NCBI RefSeq assembly: GCF_963921235.1
Contig: NC_086108.1
Span: 1,178,001-1,242,000 of the forward strand
Direction of reading: 5' to 3'
Source of the DNA: Mobula hypostoma
Lineage: Eukaryota
DNA: 64,000 nt
Shown: in pieces, positions 60 to 53,764 of the stretch
How the letters are laid out: every line of letters begins with the position of its first letter
Position numbering within the stretch: position 1 is the stretch's first letter
Made by a program: the position numbers and the translations under genes
Notes under the pieces: generated by a model
Seen by the model: the letters and a program-made list of their open reading frames with translations, nothing else
Told to the model about the DNA's origin: nothing
Database searches by the model: none

Positions 60-2860
60 ACCATTGCCGTCAGCCCATTCTATGCATTCACCACTCTCTG
101 AGTAAAACACTTATCCCTGACATCACCTCTGTACCTACTTCCAAGCACCTTAAAACTGTCACCTCTCGTGTCAGCCATTTCAGCCCTGGGGATAAACCTC
201 CGACTATCGACATGATCAATGCCTCACATTATCTTATACACCTCTATCAGGCCATCTCCCATCCTCCGTCGTTCCAAGGAGAAAAGGCCAAGTTTACTCA
301 ACCTAGTCATGCATGCTAAGGCATGCTCCCCAATCCAGGCAACATCCTTGTAAATCTCCTCTGCACCCTTTCTATGGCTTCTACATCCTTCCTGTAGTGA
401 GGCAACCAGAACTGAGCACAGTACTCCATGTGGGGTCTGACCAGGATCCTATATAGCTGTAACATTACCTCTCGGCTCTTAAACGCAATCCAAGGTGATG
501 AAGGCCAATGCACCATATGCCTTGTTAACCACAGAGTCAACCTGTACAGCAGCTTTCACTGTCCTATGGACTAGGACCCCAAGATCCCTCTGATCCTCCA
601 CACTGCCAAGAGTCTTACCATTAATACTATGTTCTGCCATCATATTTGACCTACCAAAATGAACAACTTCACACTTATCTGGGTTGGACTCCATTTGCCA
701 CTTCTCAGCCCAGTTTTGCATCCTATCAATGTCCCGCTGTAACCTCTGACAGCCCTCCACACTATCCATAACACCCCCAACCTTTGTGTCATCAGCAAAT
801 TTACTCACCCATCCCTCCACTTCCTCATCCAGGTCATTTATAAAAATCACAAAGAGAAGGAGTCCCAGAACAGATCCCTGAGGCACACCACTGGTCACCG
901 ACCTCCATGCAGAATATGACCTGTCTACAACCACTCTTTGCCTTTTGTGGGCAAGCCAATACTGGATCCAAAAGCAAGGTCCCCTTCTATCCCATGCCTC
1001 CTTACTTTCTCCATAAGCCTTGCATGGGGTACCTTATCAAATGCCTTGCTGAAATCCATCTACACTACATCTACTGCTCTACCCTCATCAATGTGTTTAT
1101 GCACATCCTCAAAAAATTCAATCAGGCTCGTAAGGCACGACCTGACTTTGACAAAGCCATGCTGACTATTCCTAATCATATTATACCTCTCCAAATGTTC
1201 ATAAATCCTGCCTCTCAGGATCTTCTTCATTAACTTACCAACCACTGAAGTAAGACTCACTAGTCTATAATTTCCTGGGCTATCTCTACTCCCTTTCTTG
1301 AATAAGGGAACAACATCTGCAACCCTCCAATCCTCCAGAATCTCTCCCATCCCCATTGATGATGCAAGGATAATTAACGGAGGCTCAGCAATCTTCTTCC
1401 TTTCCTCCCACAGTAGCCTGAGGTATATCTCGTCTGGTCCCAGAGACTTATCCAACTTGGTGCTTTTCAAAAGCTCCAGCACATCCTCTTTCTTAATGTC
1501 TATATGCTCAAGCTTTTCAGTCCACTGTAAATCATCTCTACAATCGCCAAGGTCCTTTTAGACAGTGAATACTGAAGCAAAGTATTCATTAAGTACCTCC
1601 ACTGCCTACTCCAGTTCCATACACACTTTTCCACTGTCACACTTGATTGGTCCTATTGTCTCATGTCTTATCCTCTTTCTCTTCACATACTTGTAGAATG
1701 CCTTGGGGTTTTCCTTAATCCTGCTCGCCAAGGCCTTCCCATGGCTCCTTCTGGCTCTCTTAATTTCATTCCTAAACTCCTTCCTGCTAGCCTTATAATT
1801 TTCTAGATCTCTATCATTACCTAGTTTTTTTGAACCTTTCGTAAGCTTTTCTTTTCTTCTTGACTAGATTTTCAACAGCCTTTGTTTCCTATACCTTACC
1901 ATCCTTTCTCTGTCTCATTGGAACGAACCTATGCAGAATGCCACATAAATATCCCCTGAACATTTGCCACATTTCTGCCGTACGTTTCCCTGAGAACATC
2001 TGTTCCCAATTTATACTTCCAATTTCCTGCATGATAGCTTCATATTTCCCCTTACTCCAAATAAACACTTTCCTAACTTGTCTGCTCCTATCCCTCTCCA
2101 ACGCTATAATAAAGAAGATAGAATTGTGATCACTATCTCCAAAATGCTCTCCCACTGAGAGACCTGACACCTGACTAGGTTCACATCCTAATACCAGATC
2201 AAGTACAGTCTTTTGTCTTGTAGGCTTATCTAGATATTGTGTCAGGAAACCTTCCTGAACACACCTAACAAACTCCACCCCATCTAAACCCCTTGCCCTA
2301 GGGAGATTCTAATCCATATTGGGGAAATTAAAATCTCCCATCACGCCAACCCTGTTATTATTGCTCCTTTCCAGAATCTGTCTCCCTATCTGCTCCTTGA
2401 TGTCCCTGTTACTATTGGGTGGTCTTTAAAAAACACCCAGTAGAGTTACTGACCCCTTCCTATTCCTAACTTCCACCCACAGAGACTCTGTAGACAACCC
2501 CTCCATGACTTCCTCCTTTTCTGTAGCTGAGACACTATCCCTAATCAGCATGCTACACACCCCTCCCCGTCCTTTCTGAAACATCTGAAGCCTGGCACTC
2601 GAAGTAACCATTCCTGTTCCTGAGCCATTCAAGTCTCTGTAATGGCCACAACATCATAGCTCCAAGAACTGATCGATGCTCTAAGCTCATCGACTTTGTT
2701 CATGATACTCCTTGCATTAAAATACACATCTCAAGCTACCAGTCAGAGCGCATCCCTTCTTTATTACATGCCTATCTCCCTCTCACACTGCCTACAAGCT
2801 TTCTCTATTTATCAACCAACTGTCCCTCCTCCGTCTCTTCAGTTCGGTTTCCACCCCCCC
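60..2860 (-). pseudogene. CR1 ORF2 (endonuclease-RT), disrupted
   Basis: ORF fragments 2426-2632, 1889-2278, 1060-1482, 479-934 and 316-540 all carry CR1 ORF2 motifs. Confidence 0.85.
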
Positions 2861-2867
2861 AGCAATT

Positions 2868-3793
2868 CTAGTTTAAACTCTCCCCAATAGCCTTAGAAAA
2901 CCTCCCTGCCAGGATATTGGTCCCTCTCAGATTCAAGTACAACCCATCCTTTTTGTACAAGTCACTCCTGCCCCAAAGGAGGTCCCAATGATCCAGAAAT
3001 TTGAATCCCTGCCCCCTGCTCCAATCCCTCAGCCACGCATTTATCCTCCACTTCACTCTATTCCCATACTCACTGTCACGTGGCACAGGCAGCAATCCTG
3101 AGATTACTACCTTTGTGGTTCTACTTCTCAGCTTCTTTCCTAACTCCCTGTAGTCTGTTTTCAGGACCTCTTCCCTTTTCCTCCCTATGTCGTTGGTACC
3201 TATATGTACCACGATCTCTGGTTGTTCACCTTCCCACATCAGGATATCATGGACGCAATCAGAAACTTCCCAGATCCTGGCACCTGGGAGGCAAACTACC
3301 ATCCGTGTTTCTTTCCTGTGTCCACAGAATCGCCTGTCTGACCCCCTAACTATAGAGTCCCCTATCACTGCTGCCATCCTCTTCCTTTCCCTATCCTTCT
3401 GAGCCACAGGGCCAGACTCTATTGCGGCCACTGTTGCTTCCTCCAGGTAGGTCAACCCTTCCAACAGTACTCAAGCTGAAGTACTTATTGTCAAGGGTAC
3501 AGCCACAGGGGTCTCTCCAGTATCTGACTCTTGCCCTTCTCTCTCCTGACTGTTACCCATTTACCTGTGTCCCAAGGCCCCGGTGTGACTACCTGCCTAT
3601 AGCTCCTCTCTATCACCTCCTCACTCTCCCTGACCAGACGAAGGTCATCGAGCTGCATCTCCAGTTCCCTAACACGGTCCCTGAGGAGCTGCAGCTCTAT
3701 GTACCTGGTGCAGATGTGGCCATCCAGGAGGCTGGGAGTCTCCCGGACATCCCACATCTGACACCCAGTACAGAATACCGGTCTCACAGACAT
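2868..3793 (-). pseudogene. CR1 ORF1 (zinc finger/coiled coil + SGNH esterase), frameshifted
   Basis: CTGCQMW..HICTRY, then the coiled coil LRDRVRELEMQL, then SGNH blocks VIGDSIVRG, CLPGAR, VVHIGTND and DGLYLN, split over two frames. Confidence 0.85.
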
Positions 3794-21734: not shown

Positions 21735-22222
21735 ATCAGCCAATCATGAGGCAGCAACTCAAAGCATAAAAGCATGCTGACATGGTCAAGAAGTTCAGTT
21801 GTTGTTCAGACCAAGTGTCAAAATGGGGAAGAAATGTGATCATGGTGACTTTGACTGTGAAATGATTGTTGGTACCTACAGGGCAGATTAAGCTTCTCAG
21901 AAACTGCTGTTCTCCTGGGATTTTCACTCACAACAGTCTCTAGAGTTTACAGAGAACGGTGCGAAAAACAAAAAAACATCCAGTGAGCACCAGTCCGTGG
22001 GGGAAAGTGCTCTGTTAATGAGAAAGTTCAGAAGAGAATGGCCAGACCGGTTCAAGCTGACAGGAAGGCGACAGTAACTCAAATAATCACTCATTACAAC
22101 AGTGGTGTGCAGAAGAGCATCTCCAGACGTACAACACGTCAAATCTTGAAATGGTTGGGCTACAGCAGCAGAAGATCACGAACATACAGAAATGCACTCA
22201 GTGGCCACTTTATTAGGTACCT
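21735..22222 (+). mobile_element. Non-autonomous Tc1 family copy
   Basis: Same family as 6651-7209. Other copies at about 14430-14660, 42708-43130, 45640-46155 (+) and 51510-52045 (-), with HTH remnant CDLSDFDRG.IVGARR..LSIS.TADLL. Confidence 0.75.
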
Positions 22223-22810
22223 TTTGCATATAATAACCTCCCCCCCTTTACAAAAGGCATGTCCTCTAGGGGTACCACAAACTTGTCATGGGATTAGGAG
22301 GCTTATGTGACTCAATAACCCAGAGAGCTACGTTGGCTGGAGTTAGGGCCTTGTGCTTTGCTCCTGATAGGATCAACCATGCCAAACAGGTCAAAGGGTA
22401 GAGGTCAAACTGAGAGTGATCCACCGGTCCACCAGCATCAGGGACTGATCAGGGATCAGGTATAAAACCCATAATTACAAATGGTGTTCATAAAGCCTTA
22501 ATGGGTCAGTGGGGCAGTGGGTAAAATGACTGCTGTAAATTGACCCTTGTGTGCGGGGGAGAGGAGTGTTAAAAATGTAAATTTTTAACTAAATTTGGGA
22601 GTCTGGGAATGTGTGGAGAATAAGTCAGCATCAGTGTAAATAAGTGCAGCAGGGGGCATGTGGAGGAGATTCATAAGGTATTGTTTTGCCTTGTCATACC
22701 TCACTGCACTATGTAATGATCTGATCTATATGAAAAGTATGCAGGACAAGCTTGTCACTGTGACAATAACAAACCAATACTTCACTGAAGATATCACATC
22801 ACTGCTTGAG

Positions 22811-22947: not shown

Positions 22948-23209
22948 AGGAAAAGGAAAGTTACGTCACATCTGGAGTTTCTCCAGTTAGCGGACGATTT
23001 CTCTCCACACCTCTCTGACGTAGTGGGGAACCGCGTACAAGACAAGTTACAGCAGTGGTTTGCCATTGCCTTCTGCCGGGTGAGTTTTCAAAGAGATCAC
23101 CAGCTCGTAACCCAGCATGGATGGAAAGCGCGCAGGGGAGCCGGCTGGATTCGAACCCGGGACCTGTTGTCCCAAAGTCCGGCGCTGATGCCACTACGCC
23201 ACCAGCCGG
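22948..23209 (-). mobile_element. Bipartite tRNA-derived SINE carrying RTE 5' UTR and RTE 3' end segments
   Basis: Head with A box TGGCGTAGTGG and B box GGTTCGAATCC. The body matches the RTE at about 24789-24874 and 27787-27845. CTTTC-like tail. Confidence 0.8.
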
Positions 23210-24133
23210 GTCAATGAGTGAGACAGATACTAAATCACGTTGCAGGAACCAGTCTCCCCTCCACAGACTCTGTCTACACTTCTCACTGTCTCAGGAAGGC
23301 AGCCAGCAGAATCACAGACCACACCCAGGCTGGATATTCTCTCTTCCCCCCGCCCCTCACATCAGGCAGAAGATACAAAAGTCTGAAATACCGCCAGGCT
23401 TTAGGGCAGCTTCTCCCCCACTGTTACCGAGTCTTGGACAGAGCTCTTGTACAAGACTGACTTTTAGCCTCACAGTCTACCTGGCAATGACCTTGCACCT
23501 TATTGCTTACCTGCACTGCACTTTCTCTGGAGCTGTTACACTTTATTCTGCACTCTGTTATCGTTTTACCTTGTTCTACCTCAGTGCACTGTGTGGTTTC
23601 CTCTGGATGCTCTGGTTTCCTCCCACAGTCCAAAGACTTTCAAATTAGTCAGTGTTAGTAAGTTGTGGGCGAGCTACGTTGGTGCTGGAATCACAGCGAC
23701 ACTTGTGAGCTCTCCACAGCACGTCCTTGGGCTCTGTTAGTCATTGATACAAATGACATATTTCACTGTATACTTCGATATACATGCAACAGACGAAGCT
23801 AATCTGGAAGAAATTATTCTCCATCGCAGAGGGATATGTTAGCAGAGGATGTGGGTCTAAAGTGAGGAGTGGAGGTCATAGAGTCATAGATAAGTGCAGC
23901 ACAAAAACAGGCCCTTTGGCCCATCTAGTCCATGGCAAACCACTTCGACTGCTTGCTTTCATCCAACTGCACTTGGATCATATCCCTCCATACCCCTTCC
24001 CATCCGTGTACCCAGCCCCGCCATCACCCCGCAACGGATGGAGCGCTCCCTCGGCAGTCGGCCCGATCTGCGGAGTCTCTGCCAGCCGCATCGCCGCCTT
24101 GACTGCGTCCACGCGGCTCTCGTATCTTCTCCC

Positions 24134-24240
24134 ATGCCTTCCGGGCCGGCTTACAACGATGAGAAGGGCTCGTCTCTGGGGGAACCCCAGTACGGACGTG
24201 ACCCGGCCAGCGGCGGCATCTTCTCCAGCGACTACAAACG
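24134..24240 (+). pseudogene. AP3B2: Transduced copy of AP3B2 (AP-3 complex beta-2) coding exon 1
   Basis: ATG at 24134 gives [36 protein letters not shown], matching the recalled human AP3B2 N-terminus [38 protein letters not shown]. Ends at donor CG|GTAACG (phase 2). Lies within the TSD-bounded RTE insertion; no exon 2 recognised. Confidence 0.85.
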
Positions 24241-24854
24241 GTAACGAACAGCGACCAACCACAAAATATAATAAAGCAGTTAAAGGGAAAGCCAAGGTGG
24301 CCACCGTGCTACGGGTGAAGTCGAAGCGCGGCGCCGAGGTTGCGGAGGCCCCGCCTATGCTTGGCCTAAGGCCGCGGGTGTCTCTGTGTGCCAGGGCCGG
24401 GCTTCGGCTCCCTCTGGGCCGGAGAGAGGCCTCTCCAGTGTCCGGGCGGAGACAGACTGCCGCCGGACAAGCCCGAACTCGAGCAGAAGGCTACATCAAT
24501 TCCTCATTAATGAAGTTTTATGTGTCATTTTAATTTTTCGTATTTGTATCAAGTAAACCTGTGTAGCACGACCTTAAGTTGGCCTAAGGGGTGTGGTCGA
24601 CCCTGCCCTTGTGATTCGCCCCAGGTCCAGCTGACCCGGCTGGTAGCACCTGGTAAGGGTCCCTTGCTCAGGGTTACGAGTGATGGCCTACGGCGGAGCC
24701 AGCAGGAGACTGGCGGGGAAGGCAGAAGAGCTACGACCTTGGAAGACAATGGTTGCTTTGCAAGCAGACGATCTACCGAGAAGAGAGGTGGTGATCTCTT
24801 TAAACTCACCTGGCAGAAGGCAAAAGCAAACCACTGCTGTAACCTGCCAAGTAC

Positions 24855-27844
24855 GTGATTTCCCAAAATGTCAGTCTCAATAAGGATCAAAACAATGACG
24901 TTAACGCAGCCACGAATAACAGTAGAGGAGTCGCGTCCGGCAACGGTAGGAATGAGACTACCAGGGTCATCATCAAGCGAAAACTTCATGTCAGGATAGC
25001 TACGTGGAATATTAGACCTCTTCTTACACGAGGTAAACTAGAAAATGTTGTTATGGAAATGAAAAGACTGAAGATGAACATACTCGGACTATGTGAAATG
25101 AGATGGACGGGGGGGGGTGGCTCAAAAGGGATGACGGATACCAACTGATCTATTCAGGAGGAAGTGAACGTAAGCATGGAGTTGGAATTTTGGTAGACAA
25201 GGAAACAGCAAGAACTATCAAAGGCAGTGTATCCATTAAGAGTGATGATGATTAAAATCTCAGCTAAACCATTTGACATTAACGTCATACAGGCCTATAT
25301 GCCAACCACAGACTATGACGATGATGAAGTCGATATGGTCTATGGAGAAGTTAAAAAGCTAATGAAAAAGACTAAAAACAACGAAGTAACTGTGATTCTT
25401 GGTGATTTTAATACCAAAGTTGGCAGCGTAGGAGAAGTTTTGACTGTAGGACCCTTCGGACTTGGGGAAAGAAATGACCGCGGAGAAAGACTGGTTGAAT
25501 TTGCAAAAACTAACAAACTAGTGATTGCAAACACCTGGTACAGTCTGCCAAAACGGAGACTGTACACGTGCACCAGTCCTGATGGCTCAGTAAAAAACCA
25601 AGCTGACTATATTTTAGTACCCAATCGGTTCAGGAATGGAGTGAAGCAGGTGAAAACGTACCCTGGTGCTGACTATTATACAGATCACAACCCTGGGGTA
25701 TTGGACATGAGTGTGCGTTTGAAGAAGGTGAGAAAGGCCAAACCATCAAATAAGAAAGACCTTGATTTACGCATTACCGATGAAGCAAAAAAGATCAAAT
25801 ATTTGGTCAAAACAGAGACTGGATTTTCGGTCTTAGATAACGGGAGTAGCAACATGGCAGTGGAGAACATCTGGGAAGAGTTTAAAACAACAGTAACAGA
25901 AATTGCGGAAAAGACTTTGGGTTGTCGGAAAAAGAGCAAAAGACATAAGCCTTGGTTCAGCGATGAGTTGAGAAAGTTAAGTGAAGAATGAAGAAAGGCA
26001 AAACATCAGGATAATGAACGCTACAAAGCCCTACACCGCTTGATTCAAAGAAAGTGCAAGGAAGTGAAGAGAATTGGATGAGTGAGCAGTGCGAAGAAAT
26101 TGAGCAGTATGAACCAAGTCATGATTATAGAGGCCTTCACCAGAAGGTAAAGGGTATGATGAAATTAAAGAGGACCGTGCCATCAACTGGGTGTATCGAG
26201 TACAGTGCTGGTAATCCATGCTATGAAAAAGAAGAGATCATGGACAGATGGGTTGAGTACATCTCGGAATTATTTGAAGACAGCAGGATTGAGGATTTAC
26301 CAGAATTAAATCAAATGACTAATCAACCTAAAATATTGATGTCAGAGATGGAAAGTTCGATTCGGAGTCTAAAAGTCAGAAAGGCAGCCGGTGAAGATAA
26401 GATTCCTACTGAAATTCTGAAATCGCTTGGTCCGAAGGGAAAAACGAATCTTTTAGTGATATTAAACAACAGTTATATGACAGGAAATCTTCCGGAGGAC
26501 TTTCTCAAATCAGTATTTATCGCCTTACCAAAAAGCCAAGGATGATAAAATGTAACGAACACAGGATGATAAGCATAATGTCTCACTGCGTCAAGCTACT
26601 GTTGAAAATAGTGTTCGGCAGAATGAAAGGAACAATCAGGAATGAAATTGGAGAAACACAATTTGGTTTTTGTAAAGTCTCAGGAATAAGGGAAGGAATA
26701 TTCGCGTTGAGAAACATCATGGAGAGATGCTTTGAGGCGCAAAAGACCATCTACTTATGCTTTATTGACTATGAAAAGGCTTTTGATAAAGTAAGACAGG
26801 AGAAAGTAATAGAGGTGCTGAACAAGTACGATCTGGGATGGGAGAATGCGCAGATAATAAGGAACTTGTATTGGAAACAGAAAGCGGCGGTCAGGGTAGA
26901 AAATGAGCTATCACCATGGGCATGTATTAAACGAGGCGTAAGGCGAGGCTGTGTTGGATCGCCAGATTTGTTCAACCTCTACGGAGAATGGATTTTTCGG
27001 GAATGTGACCATCAGGAGACAGGTATTCCAATCGGAGGCCAGAAGGTAGATAACATCAGATAAGTGGACGATACCGCTTTGTTAGCCGACAGCGAATGAG
27101 AACTGCAAATTATGCTGAATAAACTGAACAAGAAAAGCCTTGACTAAAACTAAAAATCAACCCTAAGAAAACAAAATCGATGGTGGTAAGCAAACCAAAC
27201 ACTAAAGACTCATTCATGATGGTATCGTTACAAGTGAAGGGACAAGACATTGAACAGGTGCGAAAGTTTGAATATCTTGGCAGTTGTCTGACAGATGATG
27301 GGAGATGTGAGTTGAGATCAGAAGGAGAATAGGTATGGCTTAGACCCAGTTCATGAAGCTAAAAGATCTACTACGCAATCGGAAGGTAGACATCCAAAGT
27401 AGAATCCGCTTCCTTGAGTGTTACGTATGGTCAGTGCTGAGGTCTGGATCAGAAACATGGACCCTGAAGAAGGATGACATGAAACAAATTAATGCTTTTG
27501 AAATGGTGTGCTATCAACGAATGTTGAAGATTAGCTGGGTAGAGAAAGTTTCAAATGAAAGGGTTTTGTCCGAAGTTGATAGACCATGGATGTTGCTGGA
27601 GAAGATTATGAAGTTAAAAGTTGCTTATTGTGGACACGTTATGCGGAGAGATAACATCTTGTTGGACTTGCTATATGGAAAGGTGGAGGGAAGGAAAGGA
27701 AGAGGAAGGCAAGGAACAACGTGGCTGGACAACATCAAGGATTGGTCCAAGCTGGACGAGACTAGGGATGCTCTGGACAAGTGTCGGGACAGAGCGGCGT
27801 GGAGGGAAATCGTCCGCCAACTGGAAATTCCACATGCGACCTAA
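24855..27844 (+). pseudogene. RTE LINE ORF (APE endonuclease + reverse transcriptase), disrupted
   Basis: Motifs: IATWNIR, LGLCEMRW, ILGDFN, NQADYIL, TDHN, KAAGEDKI, QFGF, FIDYEKAFD, RGVRRGCVGSP. The catalytic motif reads *VDD at 27061. RTE-type C-terminus GKVEGRKGRGRQ..W. Several stops and frameshifts. Confidence 0.9.
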
Positions 27845-28362
27845 TGACGATCCATGTACCTATCCAAACTTCTCTTAAACATTAAAATTGAGCTCGCACA
27901 CATCACTTGTGCTGGAAGCTCATTCCACACTCTGAATGAAAAGGTTTCCCCTCATGTTCCCCTTAAAGTTTTCATCTTTCACCATTTAACTTATGACCTC
28001 TGATCGCAGTCCCACCCAACCTCAGTGGAAAAAGCCTGCTTGCGTTTACCCTACCTATACCCCTCATGATCTTTTGTGCCTCTATCATATCTCAGAGGTT
28101 TAGAGGGAGTCTTTGGAAGAATAGTTGGGCCTGAAGGGAAGGGTGGGGGGGTGATGGGGGCAGAGAGCCTCATAACGTTTACCACCGCCAATTAGCCCAC
28201 TGACCCTGCTCATGGCTGAAATACGGAAAGCCGACAGCTCACAGGGAGAGCATACAAACCCCACACAGACAGACGGCGCTGACTGTCAGGTCACTGGTGC
28301 TGGAAGGCAGCAGCACTACCTGCCGCAGTCACAGGGCAAAAAGTGAAAAGAGTAGTACTTGC

Positions 28363-28629
28363 CTCCAGTGGGGGCTCCTCCTCCCACAACGTCCGACACG
28401 CCCAGTGGCTGCACGTCCCCCCGTTGGGCCAGCGGGGAGTGCGGACCCCCGTGGGGGGCTCCCCGGAGACGGGCCGGCCAGGTGCAATCACTCCGCTTGT
28501 GCTCGATGAAGTCGAGGATATGGCAGAGCTGGAAGCTTCGCCCGCACTGGCCGCAGGTCAGCAGGTCCGGGCTGGGGGCGGTGGCCGGCCGCGAGGGCAC
28601 CGGCAGCTCCTCCATCTTCTCGTCCTCAC
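28363..28629 (-). CDS. znf296: Coding exon 2 of the same BCL11/ZNF296-like gene, N-terminal C2HC zinc finger
   Basis: Acceptor CCTTTCCTCACAG|GT is phase-compatible with exon 1 (C+GT=Arg, then EDEKMEE). Encodes [28 protein letters not shown], matching BCL11A [28 protein letters not shown]. The 3' end is placed at the GC donor GAG|GCAAGT (phase 1, 267 nt) and is less certain than the 5' end. Confidence 0.85.
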
Positions 28630-29499
28630 CTGTGAGGAAAGGTGGCACAGACCCCGTCACTGGCTGCACTCCACTCTCATCCCCAGCCCCCTGCCTCATT
28701 GTCCCTTTCCAAACCTCCTCCACACATGACCCCCTCCTCCAGCCCCCATTCCTTTCCTCCCCACTTACCTCAAGCACACCCCTCCCCACACCTTCTCTCC
28801 CGTCCCTTCAACAACCCCTATCCTCCCCTCTCTGTCCCTCAGCCCTCCCTGTACACATTCTCCTCCCTGCACCCTCCCCTCAATTCCCCACCCCTTCCTC
28901 TGCCTCCTCTCCACGTCGCACAAGAGGGTAAGAAAACTGTACACAGCAAGATCCCGGGCACCGGGTGAGGTGGGGTGCTGTGTGTGGGGGAATCCATAAC
29001 CTCTGTGGCTAGTGTGGTGCGTGGGACATTTTTATGTCTCTGCTTTGACCTCTCAACCGTCAGGCACGAAGATCAGAAGTCAGGGCCGTATGAGGCTCCT
29101 TGGGGTCTTTGTCAAACGGGGCTTGAAGCCCCACCTCTGGGTACTGCGGTGGGAGCTGAACCTGCCTATGCCACATCGCTACGTTGAGAGACAGATAGTA
29201 ATCAGCGAGTCGGTTTATTATTGTCACGCATGCTGAGGTACGGTGAAAACGTTTGTTTTACGAGCCATCCATAAAGATCACATCAGTAAAATCAAGAACA
29301 GAATGCAGAATAAAGTGTTACATTTTCAGAGGAACCGCAGTGCAGCTGGGCGAGGTCCATGAGAAGGTAGAGCGTGAGGTCAAGAGTCACCTGATCATTA
29401 TAGGGAACCATTCAATAGTCCCATATCAGTGGGGTGGGCGTCATCCTGGAGCCCGGTGGGGCCTGCTTTCAGACATTCCTGTTTTCTGCCCCATGGCAG

Positions 29500-52164: not shown

Positions 52165-53630
52165 TAACAGTTATTATCAAAGTGCATCTATATCACCATG
52201 TACACCCTGAGATTTTTTTTCCTGCGGGCATACTCAGCAAATCCATAGGGTTGTAACTGGATCAATGAAAGATCAACCAGAGTGCAGAAGACAACAAACT
52301 GTGCAGATGGAAATATTAATAATTAATAAATAAATAAATAAATAAATAGATAGATAGATAGATAGATAGCTAGGCAAGAAGTTGAAAATGAGTCCACTGG
52401 TTGTGACGTTTCAGTGAGAGGGTGAGTGAATCTGAGTGAACATCTCCTTTTGTTCAAGAACCTAATTGCTGAGGGGTCGTAACCGTTCTTGAACCTGGTG
52501 GTGAGAGTCCTGAGGCCCTTGTACCTTCTACCTGAGGGCAGCAACGGGAAGAGAGCATGGTCTGGGTGGTGGGGATGTCTGATGATAGTTGCTGCTTTCC
52601 CACAACAGCATTTCATGTGAAATGAGCTCAATGGTTGGGAGAGCTTTACCCATGATGAACGGGGCTAAATGCACTACTTTTTGTAAGATTTTCCATTCAA
52701 GGGCATTGGTGTTCTCGTACCAGCCCATGATGGAGCCAATCAATGTACTCTCCAAGACAAATCTATAGAAGTTTGTCAAAGTTTTAGATGTCATGCCAAA
52801 TCTGCACGATCTCCTCAGGAAGTAAAGGAGCTGACATGCTTTCTTTGCAATTGCACTTGTGTGCTGGGCCTAGGTCAGGTCCTCTGAAATAACACCTAGG
52901 AATTTAAAGTTGATGACCATTTCCACTTCAAATCCCCCAGTGAGGACTGGCTCATGGACCGCTGGTTTCCTTCTCCTACAGTCTATAATTAATTAATTCC
53001 CTGGTCTTGTTAATATTGAGTACAAGGTTATTGTTACGGCACCAGTCAGCCAGATTTTCAGTCTCCCTCCTATGTGCTGATTCATCACCACCTTTGGTTC
53101 AGCCAGCAACAGTGATATCATCAGCAAACTTGAATATGTCGTTGGAGCTGTGCTTAGCCACAGTCACAGGTGAAGTGAGTAGTGCAGGCGTGAAGCACAC
53201 AGCCTTGTGGTGCACCTGTGCCGATGGAGATTGGAGGCGGTATTGTTGCCAATCCGAACTGACTATGATCTGAAAGTGAGGATATTGAGGATCCAATTGC
53301 ACAAGGAAGTAATGGAGGCCAAGGTCTGAGAGCTTATTTATTAGTTTTGAGGGGATGATGGTGTTGAATGCTGAGCTGTAGTCAATGGAGCACATCCTGA
53401 TGTATGTATCTTTGCTGTCCAGATGTCCCAGTGCTGAGTGAAGAGCCAAGGAAATGGCATCTGCTGTGGACCTGTTGCTCCAGTAGACAAATTGGAGCAG
53501 ATCCAAGTTGCTTCTCAAGCAGGAGTTGATATGTTTCATTACCAGCTTCATCAGTGTGGATGCAAGTGCTACTGGATGATAGTAATTGAGGGAGGCCACC
53601 TCACTCTTCCTGGGAAGTGGTATATTTGAA
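52165..53630 (-). mobile_element. Longer Rex1/Babar LINE fragment (RT and 3' end)
   Basis: [39 protein letters not shown], then the C-terminal motif. A (TAAA)n(GATA)n microsatellite lies at about 52320-52370. Confidence 0.8.
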
Positions 53631-53764
53631 GCTGTATATAACTTTATTCAGGCTAAACGTGTATGCAGTTTTGATCGCTCTGTTACAGGAAGGATCTGCA
53701 GGTTTCAGCGAGGGTGCAGATGAGGTTTACTAGATGCTGATTTGATTCAAGGCTACCATTATGT

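Follow-up and report, generated by a model that had tools for sequence, protein, structure and literature searches.

The window analyzed here, a 64,000-nucleotide stretch of Mobula hypostoma DNA, holds a single insertion that is bounded by an 11-bp target site duplication (TSD) and splits an interspersed repeat in two. Between the two TSD copies lie pieces of two host genes, ABTB3-B (BTBD11-B) and AP3B2, and a near full-length LINE, all on the plus strand. The features of the locus are as follows.

23880–24012, plus strand: left half of the split interspersed repeat, found by genome search; its final 11 bp are the left TSD copy
24002–24012, no strand assigned: left TSD copy, ATCCGTGTACC, from the sequence and paralogous repeat copies
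24013–24122, plus strand: copy of ABTB3-B coding exon 1, 5'-truncated to its last 110 bp, from a genome match
24123–24133, plus strand: 11-nt linker, TATCTTCTCCC, between the ABTB3-B and AP3B2 pieces, fitting neither source significantly
24134–24240, plus strand: coding part of AP3B2 exon 1, from the ATG to the final exon base, from a genome match and the peptide
24241–24290, plus strand: start of AP3B2 intron 1 with the GT donor intact, from BLAST to contig C63 until 24266 and a gapped alignment until about 24289
24291–27849, plus strand: degenerate RTE-like LINE, near full-length (3559 bp), from the open reading frame list, domains, and other copies
24291–24868, plus strand: CpG-rich 5' UTR of the RTE family itself, common to other genomic RTE loci
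25197–25991, plus strand: Exo_endo_phos_2 domain (E = 2.1e-6)
26413–27063, plus strand: RVT_1 domain (E = 2.8e-18)
27850–27860, no strand assigned: right TSD copy, ATCCATGTACC, from the sequence and paralogous repeat copies
27850–28010, plus strand: right half of the split interspersed repeat, from paralogous copies
28319–28807, minus strand: open frame with a BCL-11A-like CCHC zinc finger (Pfam PF25491, E = 1.1e-11)

The boundaries of the insertion can be read from other copies of the repeat that it interrupts. The genome search with the left half gave 1707 first-look candidates, 40 of which were scored, and continuity of the flanks was tested in 29 other genomic copies. The left and right flanks overlap by exactly 11 bp in 17 of these 29 and by 12 bp (offset −11) in 2, while 6 give other offsets, which are projected from partial alignments, and in the remaining 4 the right flank found no match. 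The original prediction that one 11-bp TSD encloses the whole insert, with the interrupted repeat resuming on the far side, is thus borne out, the flanks being two halves of one interspersed repeat. At the 5' junction the last 3 nt of the left TSD (ACC) are also present in the ABTB3-B source, giving a 3-nt microhomology. Judging from its Pfam match, the open frame at 28319–28807 probably represents an exon of a BCL11-like gene, antisense to the insertion and some 0.5–0.9 kb away from it, and the antisense placement at a BCL11-type gene that had been proposed fits with this adjoining minus-strand exon.

The LINE is classed as RTE-like on its domains and size. An apurinic-type endonuclease (EEP) domain is followed on the same strand by a reverse transcriptase, as in the RTE clade. 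RTE-clade LINEs are compact (about 3.2–3.6 kb), have hardly any 3' UTR, and lack a poly(A) tail; the window element shares the compact size, the short 3' end, and the lack of a poly(A) or any A-run at its 3' end. The earlier recognition of a near-complete RTE LINE agrees with an element that carries both domains in 3559 bp; it is degenerate, its reading frame now split into six pieces or more, and the final open stretch stops 5 nt short of the TSD. Identity to other copies is 86–92%, and the 3' terminus recurs in 3 of them. Only 2 of 20 homologues are named, both as “craniofacial development protein 2-like,” which we take to be a marker of RTE/BovB-derived endonucleases; a literature search for a link of CFDP2 with RTE or BovB found nothing.

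The CpG-rich 5' UTR is common to at least 10 other genomic RTE loci. In other copies the match begins at 24291 or shortly after, at 5 loci exactly at 24291, and the mutual similarity of those 5 loci upstream of this point extends at most 20 nt more. The approximately 300 bp of intron-like sequence that had been placed between the host exon and the element is mostly this family 5' UTR, with AP3B2 intron making up only about 26–50 bp.

The AP3B2 exon itself was correctly recognized, including its intact donor. Positions 24134–24240 encode 35 residues plus (R), followed by GT at 24241–24242, and the peptide is 92% identical over 36 aa to the N-terminus of elasmobranch AP-3 beta-2. The true AP3B2 gene lies on the minus strand of contig C63, with exon 1 at 54273920–54274027 and 11 further exon matches reaching 54107416, and the window copy is identical to its exon 1 at 102 of 107 positions (95%). 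The intron homology is firm over 26 nt (to 24266) and, from the gapped alignment, probably continues through the following 24 nt to about 24290, where there is an 8-nt gap and an A-rich composition. The window carries only aa 1–36 of AP3B2, with exons 2 onward on C63 and none in the 64 kb, which upholds the view that this is a retrotransposed copy and not the real gene.

Homology to AP3B2 reaches only 2–3 nt beyond the ATG on the 5' side, which leaves no room for a captured promoter, and the DNA further upstream is the coding exon of another gene; the proposed capture of the AP3B2 promoter is thus not supported. In the genome the exon-1 stretch is matched twice, once in the window and once at the true gene (21 of 21 candidates scored), which leaves no subfamily, and neither the additional copies of AP3B2 exon 1 joined to an RTE nor the promoter-driven family that had been envisaged are found.

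The roughly 120 bp of CpG-rich sequence that had been taken for the AP3B2 5' region is in fact the 3' end of ABTB3-B coding exon 1 (91% identity over 24010/24013–24122 to contig C36). Against C36:1286846–1286955 on the minus strand, 100 of 110 positions of 24013–24122 are identical and all 10 differences are transitions. The 3' end of the piece falls precisely on the boundary of the source exon with its GT donor, and the intron that follows in the source gene is 49,968 bp long. The open reading frame of the source exon on C36 is 97% identical to ABTB3-B of Mobula birostris, tblastn places ABTB3-B aa 239–271 on the window piece, and the genomic matches to this stretch are again two, the window and C36 (21 of 21 candidates scored).

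The linker has an edit distance of 4 to the start of ABTB3-B exon 2 and likewise of 4 to the AP3B2 5' UTR (null P ~0.06 each). Exon 2 of ABTB3-B was located and considered as the source, and its start is not a closer match than the AP3B2 5' UTR; the first ~20 kb of ABTB3-B intron 1 contain no near match to the linker after an AG.

Other contigs also contain parts of this structure, and contigs from two organism labels cross its junctions. A DNA contig under a second organism label (X6) spans 23913–24399 with 18 differences and 1 gap and so covers all four 5' junctions; the presence of the same chimera under a second species label means that the insertion is old. A contig labeled X5, which may derive from RNA, covers 23916–24240 and ends at the last exon base, though contigs as such cannot show ends. 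A contig from organism C covers 24323–24564 with 5 differences and may not come from the orthologous locus.

One insertion between TSDs thus contains sequence from three sources at three loci in a common orientation, with the junctions at the positions given above. On balance, it was probably one old RTE retrotransposition that made this tripartite chimera in trans, by template switching and possibly with RNA joining. The arrangement is that of an in-trans chimera, in which a single TSD encloses copies of transcripts from different loci, all facing the same way and with the LINE 3'-most. We infer that the joins were made by template switching of the reverse transcriptase and not by read-through from an upstream promoter, with RNA-level joining possibly helping. 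Target-primed reverse transcription would have copied the RTE RNA to within about 0–20 nt of its 5' end, after which synthesis would have moved to an unspliced AP3B2 transcript and copied it from about +49 of intron 1 back to 2–3 nt (at most about 11 nt) before the ATG. Synthesis would then have moved to an ABTB3-B transcript, the copied part of which has the final base of coding exon 1 as its 3' limit, and after 110 nt integration would have finished at the 3-nt microhomology with the target.

A trans origin is favored because the TSD and the split repeat are precise while the parts lie on different contigs and share one orientation, because no RTE lies beside exon 1 of AP3B2 or ABTB3-B and the AP3B2 exon-1 copy occurs only in the window and the true gene, and because the start of the RTE part coincides with that of other full-length copies. 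The ACC microhomology, the stop of the ABTB3-B piece at a splice donor, the match to published LINE chimeras, and the X6 contig across the junctions all point the same way.

Several observations sit less comfortably with this explanation. The mechanism at each junction cannot be assigned from sequence alone, and the linker fits neither source significantly. A random template-switch site is not expected at a splice donor; the ABTB3-B end at such a site points to RNA processing, be it a spliced mRNA, trans-splicing, or a free 5' exon. In the literature searched, no template-switch chimeras of RTE elements are reported.

The unspliced AP3B2 sequence running straight into the RTE 5' end is also what would be expected of read-through from an RTE in intron 1 that has since been lost. 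In this explanation, a full-length RTE about 49 bp into AP3B2 intron 1 was transcribed as an unspliced read-through from the AP3B2 promoter, which amounts to 5' transduction, and the ABTB3-B piece would stem either from one more template switch or from a chimeric transcript further upstream. In its favor, the order of exon, intact donor, and first intron bases is that of genomic AP3B2, and they adjoin the canonical RTE 5' end in one orientation; 5' transduction and promoter co-option by intronic LINEs have been described for L1 (bioRxiv 10.1101/2025.02.02.635956). We nevertheless regard it as unlikely. The original prediction had looked for an RTE about 300 bp into AP3B2 intron 1, but the joint is at about +49, and no RTE-like sequence is present there or anywhere in C63:54264000–54283999 (10 kb to each side of exon 1), an absence that rests on one reference genome. 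Siblings tagged with AP3B2 were not found, and what precedes the RTE is pieced together from two loci. The AP3B2 homology is lost 2–3 nt before the ATG with no promoter included, and the piece need not begin at the transcription start. Since the ABTB3-B piece is present, simple 5' transduction cannot explain the whole insert, and a second event in trans would still be required.

Less probable again is a joining of all three RNAs, or of two, through trans-splicing or RNA ligation, so that reverse transcription had a single chimeric molecule as its template. The end of the ABTB3-B piece exactly at the exon 1 donor, ahead of its very long intron, agrees with this, and trans-splicing has been proposed for such a pattern in L1/mRNA chimeras (bioRxiv 10.1101/2025.02.02.635956). 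However, in C63 an AG acceptor is not apparent at the corresponding position ahead of the AP3B2 ATG, the pyrimidine-rich stretch of 11 nt stands after the joint and not before it, and the joint between AP3B2 and the RTE lies inside an intron and at the first bases of the RTE, not at splice sites. That this is a real AP3B2 first exon, as the intact ATG, open frame, and GT donor and a CpG observed/expected of 1.1 might suggest, or an assembly artefact fusing unrelated sequences, can be practically dismissed, given that AP3B2 continues from exon 2 on C63 and not in the window, that a copy diverging 5–9% from its sources is not a mis-joined duplicate, and that the TSD and split repeat are precise and contigs of two organism labels cross the junctions.

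Six other copies of the RTE family were searched for TSDs. The full-length copy L002, on C36, has an 11-bp TSD and 146 bp of unique, non-family sequence before its 5' end, and this extra has no other match in the genome. In copy L009 a 10-bp repeat could be identified by eye; it lies no further than about 16 bp ahead of the nominal 5' end, and more bases separate it from the start of the RTE match. Two of the six are a duplicated pair with no TSD in the 700 bp searched, and the other two have a 3' end outside the stretch examined. A 135-bp stretch of the RTE 5' UTR is 92% identical to a single GC-rich locus on contig C76, and the match ends no more than 1 nt from a consensus splice donor that reads on the opposite strand. 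That this C76 locus holds a conserved coding exon (putative exon P0170) was considered and set aside: P0170 has 0 homologues at E ≤ 0.001 among 1.84 billion representatives, and its best Atlas score of 0.85 is under the lead level of 0.9. The window chimera with its two host first exons, the L002 extra, and the C76 match together hint, quite speculatively, that this RTE lineage may habitually extend its 5' end with RNA from host first exons or CpG islands and may have built its own 5' UTR in this way. In a bolder and equally speculative form of this idea, the acceptor RNAs would be short nuclear molecules that end naturally at their 3' side and were reached by end-to-end template jumping; a prematurely terminated AP3B2 transcript and, from a splicing intermediate, a free ABTB3-B 5' exon would be candidates.

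Comparable chimeras are known from human L1. Law and Burns (2025, bioRxiv 10.1101/2025.02.02.635956) describe 17 chimeras of host first exons with near-full-length L1, six of them ending at splice donors, and 15 gene loci without an intronic L1, with a median downstream intron of 48 kb. The window insertion resembles them in carrying sense host first-exon sequence 5' of a near-full-length LINE inside one TSD, with an exon piece that ends at a splice donor before a ~50-kb intron and a source gene without an intronic LINE; for ABTB3-B exon 1, no RTE-like sequence is found in C36:1266900–1296899. It differs in that the LINE is RTE-like and without poly(A), the host is a cartilaginous fish, two host genes stand in tandem, the AP3B2 piece retains about 49 nt of unspliced intron, and the outermost piece is 5'-truncated, with a start that is not that of a transcript. 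For LINE chimeras of three parts between TSDs, Gogvadze et al. (2007, PMC2104539) gave double template switching as the explanation, and, like those, the window insertion has three transcripts head to tail in one orientation, the LINE 3'-most, and short direct repeats as flanks. The partners described there are abundant non-coding RNAs or SINEs (WEIRD, Mg-SINE, U6, B2) with a 5'-truncated LINE, whereas here they are transcripts of two protein-coding genes and the LINE is essentially full-length.

For a LINE to carry first-exon sequence of two host genes is an accident of a kind that is rare but has been described before, and no promoter was captured with it. A host first exon on the 5' end of a retrotransposon is also seen in SVA_F1 with MAST2 exon 1 and in classical L1 5' transduction. 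SVA_F1 is a propagating subfamily driven by its captured CpG island, whereas the insertion in the window is a single copy that lacks promoter sequence, and the gene harbors no source element. Its product is a dead pseudo-copy, without the AP3B2 promoter and founder of no family, and the locus thus shows no promoter capture, no new gene, and no new element family.

What the locus does provide is a dated example, common to two species labels and with clean junctions, one of them at a splice donor by a 50-kb intron, which bears on the choice between template switching and trans-splicing as the origin of such chimeras. It illustrates that 5' extension with host first exons happens also with an RTE-like element in a cartilaginous fish. 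Since such extension has been described before for mammalian L1 and a fungal LINE, it may be general to target-primed reverse transcription.

The 11-bp direct repeat enclosing the insertion is a true target-site duplication (TSD), as originally predicted. The interspersed repeat in the left flank was searched for in the 3.48-Gb genome from which the window (G000:C50:1178001-1242000) is drawn (1707 first-look candidates, 40 scored), which gave 29 loci besides the window's own, and both flanks were sought in each. The overlap between left and right flank is exactly 11 bp in 17 of the 29 copies and a projected 12 bp in 2, with other offsets in 6 (partial alignments) and the right flank not found in 4. 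This overlap means that 24013-27849 is a single insertion into a once-continuous repeat. Its parts and surroundings are as follows.

Features of the insertion and its setting
24002-24012: left copy of the 11-bp direct repeat, ATCCGTGTACC
24010/24013-24122: ABTB3-B piece, 100 of 110 positions identical to C36:1286846-1286955 (minus strand)
24123-24133: linker of 11 pyrimidine-rich nt
24134-24240: coding copy of AP3B2 exon 1, 102 of 107 positions identical to contig C63
24291-27849 (3559 bp), + strand: RTE-like LINE with Exo_endo_phos_2 and RVT_1 domains
27850-27860: right copy of the direct repeat, ATCCATGTACC
28319-28807, - strand, opposite to the insertion: probable BCL11-type CCHC zinc-finger exon

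The foreign 5' sequence (24013-24290, 278 bp) is a mosaic of sources. The best protein matches come from rays and sharks. The ABTB3-B piece derives from the 3' end of a first coding exon on contig C36 that has 272 codons and shares 97% identity with Mobula birostris ABTB3-B (BTBD11-B), and the match stops exactly at the last base of that exon, before GTGAGT; exon 2 lies 49,968 bp downstream. The AP3B2 peptide shares 92% identity with the N-termini of elasmobranch AP-3 beta-2, with all 29 protein hits of AP-3 beta type. Downstream of the exon come its GT donor and intron sequence of at least 26 nt, probably about 49 nt. In the intron piece (24241-24290) 31 of 42 aligned positions are identical to the source, against 102 of 107 in the exon, and in 9 of the 11 substitutions the window copy has acquired A. 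The linker lies equally far, at edit distance 4, from the beginning of ABTB3-B exon 2 and from the AP3B2 5' UTR (null probability about 0.06 each). A single open frame of 76 codons (24014-24241) happens to run through ABTB3-B piece, linker and AP3B2 exon; it has one-in-three odds of arising by accident and is without evidence of use.

The LINE itself has a reading frame broken into at least 6 pieces, the last open stretch stopping 5 nt short of the TSD, and the element has no poly(A) at its 3' end, a terminus common to 3 other genomic copies. Identity to other copies is 86-92%, and among 20 homologues of the endonuclease part the 2 with a name are both "craniofacial development protein 2-like"; this name, the compact size and the tiny 3' UTR presumably fit an RTE-clade element. 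In a genome search with 24013-24560 and in local BLAST, the matches of other RTE copies lie from 24291 on, beginning exactly at this column in 5 loci, and similarity among copies extends at most about 20 nt further upstream. This argues that most of the 300 bp previously read as unspliced, intron-like sequence is the element's own CpG-rich 5' UTR. At 22961-23106 (- strand) lies a short element in which part of the RTE 5' region is fused to the RTE 3' tail, with about 82% identity (window parts 24785-24874 and 27790-27844). Contig depth is roughly 100-fold higher over 24757-24907 and the final 70 bp or so of the RTE, with contig joints running from 24865 to 27790, and the short element is apparently a SINE-like, non-autonomous derivative that is abundant and uses the RTE tail.

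The true genes lie elsewhere. On C63, AP3B2 exon 1 codes for amino acids 1-36, identical to a shark AP3B2, and the same strand carries 11 more exon matches beyond it, as far as 54107416. The window holds only amino acids 1-36 of AP3B2 and 239-271 of ABTB3-B. Each exon stretch has exactly one other genomic match, and no RTE-like sequence was found in the 10 kb on each flank of AP3B2 exon 1 or in C36:1266900-1296899 around ABTB3-B exon 1. This refutes both a real AP3B2 gene in the window and the proposed subfamily of RTE copies carrying AP3B2 exon 1. The capture of an AP3B2 promoter also falls, because AP3B2 homology begins only 2-3 nt before the ATG.

Structurally, the insertion matches two published kinds of chimera. 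One preprint describes human L1 insertions that carry first exons of host genes, 17 in number and 6 of them ending at splice donors, with 15 gene loci lacking an intronic L1 and a median downstream intron of 48 kb (bioRxiv 10.1101/2025.02.02.635956); TSD-flanked tripartite chimeras have been ascribed to double template switching (PMC2104539). The present case differs in its RTE-like LINE without poly(A), its cartilaginous fish host, its two protein-coding first exons in tandem and its one unspliced partner. A literature search, with most subscription journals and bioRxiv supplements outside its reach, turned up no published chimera of this kind involving an RTE element.

A single event of target-primed reverse transcription produced the whole insertion, fusing in sense orientation an essentially full-length LINE and two host transcripts from different chromosome-scale contigs. 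The ABTB3-B piece ends at a splice donor ahead of a 50-kb intron, the AP3B2 piece is unspliced, and ACC forms a 3-nt microhomology at the 5' end of the insertion. Given the structure shared with the human L1 and tripartite chimeras, we favor formation in trans as the probable route, although the window sequence could prove none of the three readings. An amended form of the 5' transduction originally proposed seems unlikely, as it requires a lost source element plus an extra event. Joining of the RNAs before reverse transcription is more doubtful still.

In a second near-full-length RTE copy (G000:C36:146250600-146256074), which has an exact 11-bp TSD (TGTCACCTAGT), 146 bp foreign to the family separate the 5' TSD copy from the RTE start; these 146 bp occur nowhere else in the genome and end in TAG preceded by a pyrimidine tract. 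Part of the RTE 5' UTR (24350-24484, 135 bp) shares 92% identity with a single locus of high GC content (G000:C76:16250342-16250476), which other RTE copies match over 24350-24447 only. The matching stretch stops no more than 1 nt from a consensus donor on the opposite strand, CGG|GTGAGT, which closes an ATG-started 75-codon ORF for which a homologue search returned none. These two cases leave a slim chance that acquiring 5' exon sequence from the host is a recurrent behavior of this RTE lineage.

One contig, from a DNA run under the same organism label, matches 23916-24229 with no difference and may derive from the assembly's own sample. Another, from a run under a second organism label, extends over 23913-24399 (18 differences, 1 gap) and spans all four 5' junctions, which places the chimera before the split of the two. 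CpG observed/expected is 1.10 in the 278 bp of foreign sequence vs. 0.27-0.37 in the flanks; over host pieces and RTE 5' UTR together (24013-24500) it is 0.8-1.1, the flanks being CpG-poor. The ABTB3-B piece keeps 10 of 11 source CpGs and has 15 in total, and 5 of its 10 differences are G in the window and A in the source gene. This retention suggests a germline-unmethylated setting close to the BCL11-type exon, and an unmethylated domain may cover the region. G+C is 61% in 28001-29000, the kilobase holding that exon.

Other transposon remains in the window are listed below; a GDSL-lipase/OSK-type domain occurs in some LINE ORFs.

Other transposon remains in the window
482-1033 and 1063-1557, - strand: RVT_1 fragments
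2871-3470, - strand: GDSL-lipase/OSK-type domain
21987-22307, + strand: Tc3-type transposase HTH
52531-52869, - strand: ALKBH8_N-like stretch
53102-53647, - strand: RVT_1 fragment

An Adaptin_N search returned many long intron-less matches on several contigs, covering 370-420 profile positions with internal stops (among others G000:C75:40347877-40349139, C52:2211327-2212538 and C91:56196573-56197694). These look like processed pseudogenes of adaptin genes, and retrocopying of host mRNAs thus seems common in this genome.
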